In this document: positions 21,359 to 62,903 of the stretch, in pieces
Layout of the letters: the number at the start of each line of letters is the position of its first letter
Position numbering within the stretch: the first letter of the stretch is position 1
From: Marinicella sp.
Lineage (GTDB): Bacteria; Pseudomonadota; Gammaproteobacteria; Xanthomonadales; Marinicellaceae
Direction: 5' to 3'
Length of the DNA: 64,000 nucleotides
Assembly: GCA_965230295.1 (NCBI GenBank)
Contig: OZ246001.1
Location: 672,001-736,000 of the forward strand
Position numbers and translations under genes: made by a program
The notes under the pieces: generated by a model
Seen by the model: only the letters and a program-made list of their open reading frames with translations
What the model was told of the DNA's origin: nothing
Databases searched by the model: none

Positions 21359-22738
21359 TCACTGAAATCCATCAGCAAAAATCAGGTCATCCTGAGACTT
21401 GATTCTGATGGCAAAGCCATTGGTTACCTGGTTAATCACTTCAACTTCATAACCATCAATCGGGTCAACAAAGGTCTCACCGACTTTCCACATCACCCCT
21501 TCAGTATCGGCATAATTGGCGGCAGGAGCATCGCCATCGACCACCCAAGGCGGTTCGTTTCTTCCCGTATCCACATGATGAATAATCACCGCTGTATCAA
21601 CAATGTTACTCTCATACTGACCTGATGCTTGTCTGGATTCAATCACATAAAAGGTTCCGTCACTCAAGGGTATGCGGGCAAATTTATAATTGATGAAGGC
21701 GGTTGAAGCGGTCCAATTAACGATCAAAACTTCATCGGTGCTGCTGTTAGCAATGAAACCATCGGAATCATCCACCCAACCCAAGTTGTGTTTAAAATGC
21801 ATGTTGATGTGTTTACCCAAGCGGCCATAGACACTATCGTTTACTGCATAACCAGTGGCTGAACTCATCACATCCCAGGGGCTGTCATAGGGGTTGTCGT
21901 CACCGTCAGAGTTGTTGGCATGCGGCAGACCAAATCCATGCCCCATTTCATGGGCAATCACCCCCTCATTAGCAAATGCCCAGGGAGGATTCCAAGTTGT
22001 ACGCCATAATTTCTGCAAACCATCCAAATTGGCAAAACGACCGCCGCCCCAGGCGCAACAGTCCAACACATCATTGAACATCATGTTGATACCAACAAAG
22101 CTGCTGCCATTGGCACCCGTGGCAAAGTTCACCAAGGGGTCAGCCGCATCGGTGCAATCATCAAACAACAAGTCAAGATCAGAATCAAAATTAGACCCCG
22201 GGTTTGGAATGTAGGTGGTTTGTGGACTGGGTAAATCCACCCAATCAATGGCCAAAGAACCTACCACATTGATTTTATTAAAAGAAACTTCACGCCAATA
22301 ATGATCCAAACCAGCCGGTTGGTTGGCATACATGTTTTGAAAAAACGAGAGGTTTTCAGGCTCAGCATTTTTGTCACTGAACTTACATAAAATCGACACC
22401 CAGGGTTGCGGACCAGTAACACCGCCGACCCCTCGGCTGACTCCTTCAAGCAACTCCAACGCCTGTAATTTATTCTCACGACCATCAAACATTGGCGGGT
22501 GCTTGAGTGTTGCCGAAACCTTCAAACCAGCCCATTCTCTGATTGGCATGCGCTGCTCAAAAGCTGAACTTAAACTGAGCGGAATTTTATGGGTTTCAGT
22601 TTGGATAAAATACCGTTGGTGGTATTGTTCAGATGGTGGCTTGGCATCACCGATTTCATACACCAACACACCTTCTATTTTGTCAGCGTGGACCCAGCTG
22701 CTGATTGAAACAAGACACAATACCCATAGTAACTTCAT
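21359..22738 (-). CDS. Secreted metzincin metallopeptidase (M6/M11-like) with C-terminal DLIFADGFQ tail
   Basis: Signal peptide; HEMGHGFGLPH (HExxHxxGxxH); WDVMS Met-turn. Confidence 0.8.
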   Translation of the reverse strand: MKLLWVLCLVSISSWVHADKIEGVLVYEIGDAKPPSEQYHQRYFIQTETHKIPLSLSSAFEQRMPIREWAGLKVSATLKHPPMFDGRENKLQALELLEGVSRGVGGVTGPQPWVSILCKFSDKNAEPENLSFFQNMYANQPAGLDHYWREVSFNKINVVGSLAIDWVDLPSPQTTYIPNPGSNFDSDLDLLFDDCTDAADPLVNFATGANGSSFVGINMMFNDVLDCCAWGGGRFANLDGLQKLWRTTWNPPWAFANEGVIAHEMGHGFGLPHANNSDGDDNPYDSPWDVMSSATGYAVNDSVYGRLGKHINMHFKHNLGWVDDSDGFIANSSTDEVLIVNWTASTAFINYKFARIPLSDGTFYVIESRQASGQYESNIVDTAVIIHHVDTGRNEPPWVVDGDAPAANYADTEGVMWKVGETFVDPIDGYEVEVINQVTNGFAIRIKSQDDLIFADGFQ

Positions 22739-61452: not shown

Positions 61453-61658
61453 GGGTTATTAGAAATCATGCATTGGTCTTAAGCGGTATCTTACATCTTG
61501 ATATGGCAGCTGCAAACCTTATTTATTCAACATTATTAAAAAGACATGGTGCCAGCTGAGACAGTGCGGTGCTGTGAAGTTTTTTTTAACTCAATCACAA
61601 TTGCCGTCCTTCAGATCCATTACAATGTATCACCAATTAATCCACCTGAGTTCATGTG

Positions 61659-62903
61659 ATGACAAAATTCCTGATTATGCCACTTTGGATTTTGCTCAGC
61701 CAATCCGTAGATGCCAAGCCTCGCTGTGAGCTCATTGCAGGACAAGCAGAGAATGCCAACCAAAACTGGGTTTGGCAATGGCAAGATAAACACCTGCGGT
61801 GTTCGCTACCAAACGCTGAAACCACCCGTCAAGGTTTTGACATGGCTAATTTGTTGATCATCAGAGGACATGGCAAAAACATCAACACCGACAAATACCA
61901 GATCATTCATCGCGCTCATGGCTATCATTTGGTTCTGAATTTGGGCCATAACAACGAACAAAGCCATTCACACAATCACCACTTGGATTTCATTCCTTTA
62001 ACCGATTTCAAGGGCATCAAAAAAGCATCACCATCATTAAAAAAACCCGCCCTGCGCAACGTGCAAAATTTAGTCAACCAAGTGGATGCCAGTCGTTGGC
62101 GTGATGATGTCACCACTTTAAGTTCTTGGTCAAGGAGAACCGGCGAAAGTGGCAATGTGGCTGCTGCCAACTGGATTGAGACAAAACTGACCAACCTGGG
62201 CTACCAAACCAGTCAGCAACCCTTCCAGGTGGGCCAAACCCCCACCAACAACATCATTGGCATCAAACCAGGCATGACCAGACCCGATGATTGGTATTTG
62301 GTTGGCGCACACATGGATTCGGTACCTTCAGGCAATGCGCCTGGAGCCGTCGACAATGCCAGTGGTTGTGCAGCCACCTTAGAAATGGCGCAAATTGCGA
62401 GTGTATATCAGTTTGAAGGCACACTGATATTCATGTGTTTTTCTGGAGAAGAACAAGGACTGATTGGCAGTGAATACCATGCCGACAGCTTGATCAATGG
62501 CGAGGATGACGACAAAATCAAATTGGCGCTGACCTTAGATATGGTTGGCTATACCAGCAACAGTGATCATGAACTGCTGATTGAGTCTTCTTCAACCTAT
62601 CAGCCACTGATGAATGAAATGGCACAATACGCTGCCACTTATGCACCCGGGTTAACCGTTTATACCAGCACCAACTATTTTGGGTCTGACCATGTGTCAT
62701 ATATCGACAATGGTATGCCAGGTATATTATCCATAGATGATGATTGGAACGTATACCCCGCCTACCACCAAAGCAATGACTTGCCGGAAAACATCAACTT
62801 GACTCAAGGCGAATACATCATCAAGACCAACATGGCAACACTGGTGGAAAAAGCTGTTGTCATGGGTTCGTTTGATTTGATTTTTGCAGACGACTTTGAC
62901 TGA
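61659..62903 (+). CDS. Secreted M28 aminopeptidase with C-terminal DLIFADDFD tail
   Basis: Signal peptide; GAHMDS, GAVDNASG, GEEQGLIGS, LDM, SDH, YH. Confidence 0.9.
   Translation: MTKFLIMPLWILLSQSVDAKPRCELIAGQAENANQNWVWQWQDKHLRCSLPNAETTRQGFDMANLLIIRGHGKNINTDKYQIIHRAHGYHLVLNLGHNNEQSHSHNHHLDFIPLTDFKGIKKASPSLKKPALRNVQNLVNQVDASRWRDDVTTLSSWSRRTGESGNVAAANWIETKLTNLGYQTSQQPFQVGQTPTNNIIGIKPGMTRPDDWYLVGAHMDSVPSGNAPGAVDNASGCAATLEMAQIASVYQFEGTLIFMCFSGEEQGLIGSEYHADSLINGEDDDKIKLALTLDMVGYTSNSDHELLIESSSTYQPLMNEMAQYAATYAPGLTVYTSTNYFGSDHVSYIDNGMPGILSIDDDWNVYPAYHQSNDLPENINLTQGEYIIKTNMATLVEKAVVMGSFDLIFADDFD

Follow-up and report, generated by a model that had tools for sequence, protein, structure and literature searches.

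The stretch of DNA analysed here, which we call the window, spans 64,000 nucleotides (positions 672,001-736,000) of a single 4,008,074-bp Marinicella contig with 44% G+C, and it contains two genes for exported peptidases whose products end in nearly the same nine residues. A preliminary description of this DNA had noticed the common ending, DLIFAD[GD]F[QD], and translation of both open reading frames (ORFs) confirms it: the first peptidase (cargo 1) finishes in DDLIFADGFQ and the second (cargo 2) in FDLIFADDFD, each directly before the stop codon. The nine-residue ending is referred to below as the tag, and the features concerned are these:

21359..22738, minus strand: cargo gene 1, a secreted M6-like zinc metallopeptidase of 459 aa (ORF translation; HEMGHGFGLPH motif)
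21362..21388, minus strand: C-terminal tag DLIFADGFQ of cargo 1 (translation; stop codon at 21359-21361; fits the genome-wide consensus)
22685..22738, minus strand: signal-peptide-like N-terminus MKLLWVLCLVSISSWVHA of cargo 1 (translation and home-made heuristic)
61656..62903, plus strand: cargo gene 2, an M28 family metallopeptidase of 415 aa with a GTG start (ORF translation; PF04389)
62874..62900, plus strand: C-terminal tag DLIFADDFD of cargo 2 (translation; stop codon at 62901-62903)
61656..61715, plus strand: signal-peptide-like N-terminus MTKFLIMPLWILLSQSVDA of cargo 2, from the GTG start (translation and home-made heuristic)

The two peptidases are unrelated, as had been proposed. Cargo 2 passes the gathering cut-off of the M28 model PF04389 (E 7.5e-35; 120.9 bits, cut-off 21.3), and cargo 1 carries the zinc motif HExxHxxGxxH in the form HEMGHGFGLPH, with weak matches to M6-type models. 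The designation of cargo 1 as a metzincin therefore stands by its zinc motif, but its placement in a family is loose, because the M6-type matches fall below threshold (68.2 bits and 1e-18 for TIGR03296, whose cut-off is 110.8; 21.6 bits and E 1.5e-4 for PF05547, slightly below the cut-off of 22). The metzincin locus has its nearest named relatives in Marinicella species and metagenome-assembled genomes (MAGs). Both N-termini read as Sec signal peptides in the translations, that of cargo 2 as V/MMTKFLIMPLWILLSQSVDA, and both are flagged by the home-made heuristic, used in place of SignalP for all signal-peptide calls in this work. The window holds no third tag-like C-terminus and, in keeping with the preliminary description, no partner gene for the tag.

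Across the genome the tag is abundant. The strict pattern D.IF.[DN][GD]F[EDQ] before a stop codon, proposed in the preliminary description, matches 39 ORFs of at least 60 aa in a whole-genome six-frame search, and a more permissive search, for the 7-residue core [ILVM]F.[DNSG][GDNS]F[EDQN], yields 112 occurrences among 3,376 crude ORFs (longest-ORF calls), which refutes the notion of a motif confined to the two peptidases. The position of the core is highly specific: 102 of the 112 occurrences lie within 12 residues of the C-terminus (86 within 3 residues, 16 at 4-12), and the remainder comprise the first copy of a tandem tag, two cores in the first 70 residues and seven that are truly internal. 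A search of the DNA for I-F-x-[DN]-[GDE]-F-[EDQH]-stop returned 46-48 matches as against 0-2 for the reversed control, so that the frequency of the tag is far beyond chance. Alignment of 86 tags on their cores gives the consensus D(69/86)-[L34 V16 P9]-I(77/86)-F-x-[D48 N23 S14]-[G49 D22]-F-[E51 D28 Q5], in which the aspartate two residues before the core recurs in 69 tags though it was absent from the search pattern. The protein stops exactly after the acidic residue in 60 of the 86 cases and continues for at most three residues in the others, and the final motif residue is E, D or Q in 84, all of which bears out the earlier remark that the tag is devoid of a transmembrane helix or basic tail. 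Codon choice varies between copies, indicating that it is the peptide on which selection acts. We found no description of the motif in Pfam, NCBIfam release 20 or the searchable literature, a search that did not extend to InterPro.

Several departures from the standard arrangement deserve mention. A single protein of the genome carries a 20-residue long form of the tag (..AVFSDGFESGDTSAWSASCP), one protein carries the tag in tandem, and in three others an internal tag acts as a linker ahead of an extra C-terminal domain, being followed by 88-311 residues. Two of these post-tag extensions are similar, both ending in a DGDG..N..D motif, and the tandem and internal-tag proteins seem to stem from gene fusion or from reading through former stop codons. 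About 15 clustered FG-GAP paralogues form a further variant, in which the tag is followed by two residues beginning with Cys (..NGFDCI, ..SGFECI, ..DGFDCN). The loci are:

G000 C1:1123089-1124372 (L087:90-1373, minus strand), 3566529-3569393, 3172793-3178705 and 1502239-1506363: tandem-tag and internal-tag proteins
L099:10608-19779 and genome 3.79-3.86 Mb: FG-GAP paralogues with Cys-containing extensions

The enrichment of the tag among exported proteins, which the preliminary description had suggested examining, is evident: a signal-peptide-like N-terminus was called in 69 of 86 tagged ORFs as against 1,070 of 3,250 untagged ones, the latter being the 33% background of the heuristic. Most of the 17 misses have an evident signal peptide by eye, one is twin-arginine-like and three are truncated ORFs. 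The tagged protein encoded at G000 C1:3398354-3399637 has a twin-arginine-like leader (MKKMNRRAFLQS..), hence the tag is not confined to Sec substrates; such a protein would fit a route accepting folded periplasmic proteins. The carriers are moreover diverse. Among 57 tagged proteins scanned with Pfam, out of 126 that meet a looser tag pattern, there are peptidases of several kinds (S8, M36, M14, M64 and trypsin-like), many FG-GAP and DUF285 proteins, and representatives of DUF11, GEVED, LamG, GSDH, arylsulfotransferase, DUF1028, Calx-beta and beta-helix families, while 17 have no Pfam family at all. In total, over 20 unrelated families are represented among the carriers; the tag itself is not matched by any Pfam or NCBIfam model, either in these 57 proteins or in the NCBIfam scans.

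The tag lies outside the fold that precedes it. In an AlphaFold2 model of the M28 protein, built on a 40-sequence alignment with a mean predicted local distance difference test (pLDDT) score of 87.8, the catalytic domain ends with a helix at residues 381-399, after which mean pLDDT drops to 61 at 401-410 and 42 at 411-414, and the tag is thus modelled as a low-confidence, flexible tail outside the preceding fold. Orthologues point the same way: 80 orthologous metzincin loci have the same last strand (..GF.V.I..), followed by varied endings. The short tag is found in Marinicella, other Marinicellaceae and Wenzhouxiangella-type genomes; a long form, F.DGFESGD..WS...P, in Acidobacteriota and Thermoanaerobaculia MAGs and in 'Multivoradales'; and the remaining loci end in unrelated domains (Chloroflexota), in basic tails or in nothing. 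Counting by eye, some 45 of the 80 loci have a short, long or variant tag. By our own count, 63 of 98 M28 homologues have tag-like ends and 7 have variants of it, down to about 30% identity. We looked at the possibility, raised in the preliminary description, that the tag is the last strand of a shared folded domain, and the low pLDDT of the tail and the variable endings of the orthologues speak against it. The same description had called the tag portable, and this is borne out by its presence on unrelated families and by its gain, loss or exchange for other C-terminal modules among orthologues.

The long form also has a distribution of its own. Searched with the corresponding pattern, four Acidobacteriota-type MAGs give 187, 53, 75 and 66 matches and a fifth gives 3, with 0-1 in controls, and 20 of 21 sampled occurrences lie 12-17 residues before the stop codon. 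Its frequency in these MAGs leads us to regard the Marinicella tag as a truncated form of a wider, cross-phylum C-terminal motif. At one Thermoanaerobaculia locus (L051), a long-tag-like motif, ..IYQEDFESGLGGFW.. (..EDFESGLGGFW..), is not terminal but continues, downstream of the metzincin domain, into a domain of about 228 aa; this may mean that the long tag arose from the opening strands of a jelly-roll type domain or imitates them.

Additional evidence comes from protein families that are subdivided by their sorting signals. A tagged M36 peptidase of 992 aa, ending in ..NDLIFVDGF, matches the myxosortase-dependent, rhombosortase-dependent and type IX secretion system (T9SS)-dependent M36 models of NCBIfam (2.9e-136, 1.1e-94 and 1.6e-23, respectively), three models that divide one M36 family by its C-terminal sorting signal. 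The choice-of-anchor Q domain is present in 4 of 46 tagged proteins; its end lies 9-16 residues from the C-terminus, immediately ahead of the tag, in three of the four. The tag holds the position that MYXO-CTERM, GlyGly-CTERM or T9SS signals occupy in M36 and choice-of-anchor Q homologues.

The distribution of the tag over genomes is all-or-none: a genome has either tens of them or next to none. Within the genus, each of the 23 other genomes gives 9-52 pattern matches, and a second genus of the family has 61. In a sample of 121 genomes of the order, with families labelled f1-f12, the tag-rich families are f1, f3, f4, f5, f9 and f11, with up to 65 matches; f2 (14 complete genomes) has none save one single match, f7 has 0-3, f8 has 0-5 and f12 is split. 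The earlier statement that similar endings recur in relatives of the same order is thereby substantiated. The tag-negative genomes are real, since an FxDGFE pattern that does not depend on a stop codon also yields only 0-5 matches in five of them. In a wider sample of 401 Pseudomonadota, the 394 genomes outside the order all have three matches or fewer, which is the control level.

Taken at face value, these results could be accounted for by a simple scheme. In it, the nine residues would constitute a C-terminal address tag in its short form, free of any transmembrane segment, with consensus D-[LV]-I-F-x-[DN]-[GD]-F-[ED]-COOH, attached as a flexible tail through a few linker residues to some 90-100 Marinicella proteins exported by Sec or Tat. 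Its role would be the one that MYXO-CTERM, GlyGly-CTERM, PEP-CTERM or the T9SS C-terminal domain (CTD) play in other lineages: to mark proteins routed to the periplasm, so that they are delivered to the cell surface or exterior or retained there. As the likeliest route we propose the GspC(PDZ)-type type II secretion system (T2SS) encoded just upstream of the window. The anatomy of the tag and the comparison of genomes lend good support to the view that it is a portable, sorting-type element; that a machine reads it, and which one, is inferred. To the full reading, an address label for export or surface delivery, probably through the GspC-type T2SS, we give about even chances.

Three secretins are found in the genome, those of PilQ, of an Xps-type T2SS (cluster B) and of a gspC-D-E-F operon (cluster A):

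genome 654,370-659,829 (L114:9371-14830; genes given as 655.6-659.8 kb), 12-17 kb upstream of the window start: gspC(PDZ)-gspD-gspE-gspF, cluster A
genome 857-868 kb (L115): complete Xps-type T2SS, cluster B

Cluster A is without pseudopilin genes, and elsewhere in the genome there are only two further, weak pseudopilin-like ORFs; the two clusters may share parts. The best correlate that we found for the tag is GspC (PF11356). By our own tally, it is present in 64 of 67 genomes of the order with at least five tag matches as against 12 of 36 with zero. The three tag-rich genomes lacking it are an 81%-complete assembly, a 260-contig assembly and one f8 genome, and the 12 zero-tag genomes that possess it consist of nine f7 genomes, two weak cases in f2 and one in f9. 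The co-distribution extends to finer scales. In f12 (81 genomes, 30 genera), GspC occurs in all 19 tag-bearing genomes (in one of them only weakly, at 1.3e-4) as against 3 of the other 62, all three from genus g281, and in genus g41 it is present in both tagged genomes and in neither of the two untagged ones. Conversely, the Xps-type T2SS marker is present in 119 of the 121 genomes irrespective of tags, so the tag does not merely track the possession of a T2SS. In two genera, tagged genes abut the gspCDEF operon, either divergent from gspC together with an extracytoplasmic function (ECF) sigma factor/kinase pair or directly 3' of gspF; such pairs flank the tagged genes beside gspC in genomes G089 and G572 (loci L156 and L157).

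A number of observations weigh against this reading. None of the genes examined matches the tag distribution exactly. GspC without tags is encountered in all 13 f7 genomes (nine with zero matches), in the three g281 genomes and in the E. coli and Caulobacter controls, and GspC-type T2SSs without the tag exist in many other Gammaproteobacteria; the system is consequently not sufficient. There are a few real tags in f8 genomes in which PF11356 was not found, and PF11356 was detected in none of the five Acidobacteriota-type MAGs, four of which have 53-187 long-form tags, NF041515 returning only generic PDZ-like fragments in them. Related genomes are not independent, and hence the correlation rests on few independent contrasts, of which perhaps four are supporting and two or three contrary. 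The signal-peptide evidence, furthermore, depends on a home-made heuristic with its high background, and the gene calls are crude. As to the dedicated machine that the preliminary description had envisaged, no gene with a matching distribution emerged; profiling of individual families over genomes, in the direction that it had recommended, points to a co-distributed GspC(PDZ)-type T2SS, with an imperfect match in f7, g281, f8 and the MAGs.

Within the T2SS reading, the PDZ domain of GspC is the candidate reader that suggests itself, although we regard this assignment as rather unlikely. In the PDZ domain of the tag-free f7 genomes, the loop that precedes the second strand shows a gap of 5 residues, and a PG(R/A)(D/N)A..F motif is common to the tag-free f7 and g281 GspC PDZ domains and absent from tag-rich genomes; this separate PDZ type of the tag-free lineages may be only phylogeny, and it is not counted as evidence. 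A predicted complex of the M28 tail (385-414, 40-row alignment) with the PDZ domain of GspC (185-288, 12-row) scored 0.02, which weighs neither way.

Several other candidate readers were considered. The recurrent neighbours of tagged genes, pairs of an ECF sigma factor and a Ser/Thr-kinase with tetratricopeptide repeats (TPR), were discarded as reader machinery because they are regulators. Five ECF (PF07638) genes of the genome are paired with kinase-TPR proteins of about 900 aa (8 kinase paralogues) adjoining tagged genes, and the pairs are probably dedicated regulators of the tagged cargo genes. DUF4915 (PF16261), found in 54 of 121 genomes, was rejected, since the tag-free f7 has it and many tag-rich genomes lack it; all three of its genes in this genome adjoin tagged genes, one fused to an Asp/Asn beta-hydroxylase domain and one to a TPR and heptosyltransferase-like region. 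A secreted family of eleven members and about 470 aa (g0751 type; N-terminus ..GEVLIYPYYTVNNGLNTLY..) has no Pfam or NCBIfam match and is annotated elsewhere only as 'hypothetical' or 'cell surface protein' (Atlas). One copy lies in the Xps operon beside the secretin, several are next to tagged genes and one is itself tagged, but the family is not discriminating, since 99 of the 121 genomes have it, the tag-free f7 and the tag-poor f8 among them; f2 lacks it. The metzincin, considered as a tag-processing peptidase, is present in only 16 of the 121 genomes, which makes it cargo and not machinery. No shared gene was detected near the tags of the tag-poor genomes G028, G029, G040, G043 and G103, a weak comparison because the ORF caller performs poorly in high-GC DNA, and the neighbourhoods of tagged genes contain no sortase-type candidate, the exosortase, rhombosortase and CPBP families not having been profiled. 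Further ideas that may be mentioned are a likeness of the D-[LVT]-I-F stretch to a TonB box, an Oar-type TonB-dependent exporter, for which there is reportedly a precedent in Myxococcus, and binding to SurA or BamD. The loci of these neighbours are:

L088:7203-10584, L091:2561-6058, L098:3625-6854 and L087:13104-15686 (also L094 and L095): ECF/kinase pairs beside tagged genes
L083:3408-5681 (minus strand), L085:6453-8495 (plus strand) and L096:1387-2427 (minus strand): DUF4915 genes
L115:9497-10918 (minus strand) and 10 paralogues, such as L081:8851-10293 (plus strand): eleven-member secreted family

Readings other than an export label must also be weighed. The tag could be a docking peptide acting after secretion, which would hold enzymes and adhesins on the surface of the producer, on its matrix or on a scaffold by strand addition, in the manner of a miniature cohesin-dockerin pair or of donor-strand complementation in pili. 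In its favour, the carriers comprise not just enzymes but also typical repeat proteins of the surface or adhesin type; the AlphaFold2 model leaves the tail exposed and flexible; the signals that the tag replaces in homologues are surface anchors; and the long form resembles the two opening strands of a jelly-roll, as the L051 motif continuing into its 228-aa domain illustrates. Yet no receptor family was found, and the eleven-member family next to tagged genes is present also in tag-free f7 and in f8. Docking and export targeting fit the present data alike, and we consider docking a minority possibility, about as tentative as the PDZ domain in the role of reader. A lower probability still attaches to a motif for processing or quality control, that is, a site recognised by a peptidase or chaperone in the periplasm or outside the cell (serving as a cap in the manner of a pro-peptide, as a degron or as a guard against premature folding or aggregation) that would be removed or used and would not fix the destination of the protein. 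Asp/Asn-Gly bonds are chemically labile, which would suit such a site; many carriers are peptidases, which often have C-terminal pro-segments, and the tolerance of 1-12 extra residues after the motif suits an endopeptidase site better than a ligand with a free carboxylate. Most carriers, however, are not enzymes in need of activation (FG-GAP, DUF285, beta-helix), no co-varying peptidase was found, the metzincin being patchy, and the all-or-none genomes and the replacement of sorting signals suit an address label better.

At the far end of the scale is the view that the tag has no specific reader, being either a lineage-specific 3' gene end, inherited or recombined, that spreads without function or a last structural element. 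This view, which is already disfavoured and which we deem very improbable, may draw on the concentration of tags in families expanded by duplication, such as the FG-GAP and DUF285 clusters. Against it, residues are kept while codons differ between copies, the motif is retained in M28 homologues at about 30% identity and across phyla in the metzincin, its carriers come from over 20 unrelated families, the AlphaFold2 model shows it without structure, and six of its nine positions are strongly conserved, one of them outside the search pattern.

Returning to the address label read by the T2SS, its boldest form can be stated as follows. The tag would be the first linear, transplantable T2SS signal, a peptide of 9 residues (20 in the long form) addressing folded periplasmic proteins to a GspC(PDZ)-type T2SS and read there by the PDZ domain or by another periplasmic part of the system; in Marinicellaceae, Wenzhouxiangellaceae-like and related families, the secretome so defined would make up some 3% of the proteome, and Acidobacteriota would have a sister long-form system. 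We deem this complete version improbable, slightly more so than the PDZ assignment by itself. C-terminal sorting signals are the means by which many bacteria settle which exported proteins reach the surface or the exterior. Should the tag be an export label, the secretome of little-studied, protein-degrading marine and soil bacteria would become predictable from sequence, and a minimal tag would be at hand for the secretion of recombinant proteins. Should the T2SS link hold, the long-open question of how this system chooses its substrates could be addressed with peptides and reporter fusions. In any event the tag, which annotation pipelines currently leave unmarked, merits a family model.

Comparison with known systems places the tag in perspective. 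Every described short signal of this kind is tripartite and involves a membrane segment and a membrane-embedded sorting enzyme; according to Haft (bioRxiv 10.1101/2023.06.07.544157), such signals are composed of a motif, a hydrophobic transmembrane segment and an Arg-rich cluster. The LPXTG/sortase, PEP-CTERM/exosortase, GlyGly-CTERM/rhombosortase and MYXO-CTERM/myxosortase systems share with the tag a location at the extreme C-terminus of signal-peptide proteins, tens of carriers per genome, an all-or-none distribution and occurrence on unrelated families. A short signature motif in that location is what we find in 86-102 ORFs. The tag is 9 residues long (about 20 in the long form) and acidic, no transmembrane segment follows it, a scan for a C-terminal transmembrane segment with a basic tail picks a different, small set of proteins, and in place of an Arg/Lys-rich cluster the last residue is E, D or Q in nearly all cases. 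An acidic tail of nine residues without a membrane segment, with around 100 carriers per genome in much of an order, is a different design. The same genome also has about six proteins with a P-V-P-V-type motif, a hydrophobic segment and a basic tail, a second and conventional sorting signal, whose endings resemble IPTL-CTERM:

G000 C1, ORF starts 3056, 820214, 982792, 2285626, 2778439 and 3946541: proteins with P-V-P-V motif, transmembrane segment and basic tail

Signals without a membrane segment offer further parallels. The CTD of T9SS cargo is, like the tag, a C-terminal signal free of membrane segments that is found on dozens to hundreds of Sec-exported carriers, and the same M36 family has a T9SS-dependent form. 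The T9SS CTD is, on the other hand, a folded domain of roughly 70-100 residues from Bacteroidota and relatives, whereas the tag is a tail of 9-21 residues with low pLDDT, not covered by any Pfam or NCBIfam domain, in Gammaproteobacteria and Acidobacteriota-type genomes. Type I secretion signals are also C-terminal and uncleaved, with acidic and hydrophobic residues at the extreme end, but their substrates have no N-terminal signal peptide and bypass the periplasm, while tagged proteins have Sec- or Tat-type N-termini, in 69 of 86 cases by the heuristic and in more by eye. The C-terminal aromatic motifs of outer-membrane proteins (the beta-signal and the DegS-activating tails) are short and Phe-rich, as is the tag, which like them would be read in the periplasm; these motifs have an aromatic residue at their end and are found on membrane proteins of the beta-barrel kind, unlike the tag, with its Glu, Asp or Gln ending (84/86) on soluble multi-domain proteins.

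The closest precedent for the proposed route is found in the T2SS itself, for which we know of no linear signal. Three reports on Vibrio cholerae indicate that EpsC's PDZ domain is required for only one substrate, VesB, by way of its immunoglobulin (Ig) domain (PMC12369372), that VesB is a surface-associated T2SS substrate (PMC13393428) and that it carries a GlyGly-CTERM domain (PMC6219818). The parallel lies in the fact that the tag finds its best genomic correlate in a GspC with a PDZ domain and that in V. cholerae this domain serves a subset of substrates; the difference, in that the PDZ-dependent information of VesB resides in a folded Ig domain and that of the tag would be held by a linear, terminal peptide. 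By analogy, the case of EpsC and VesB shows that selection among substrates by a GspC PDZ domain is possible.

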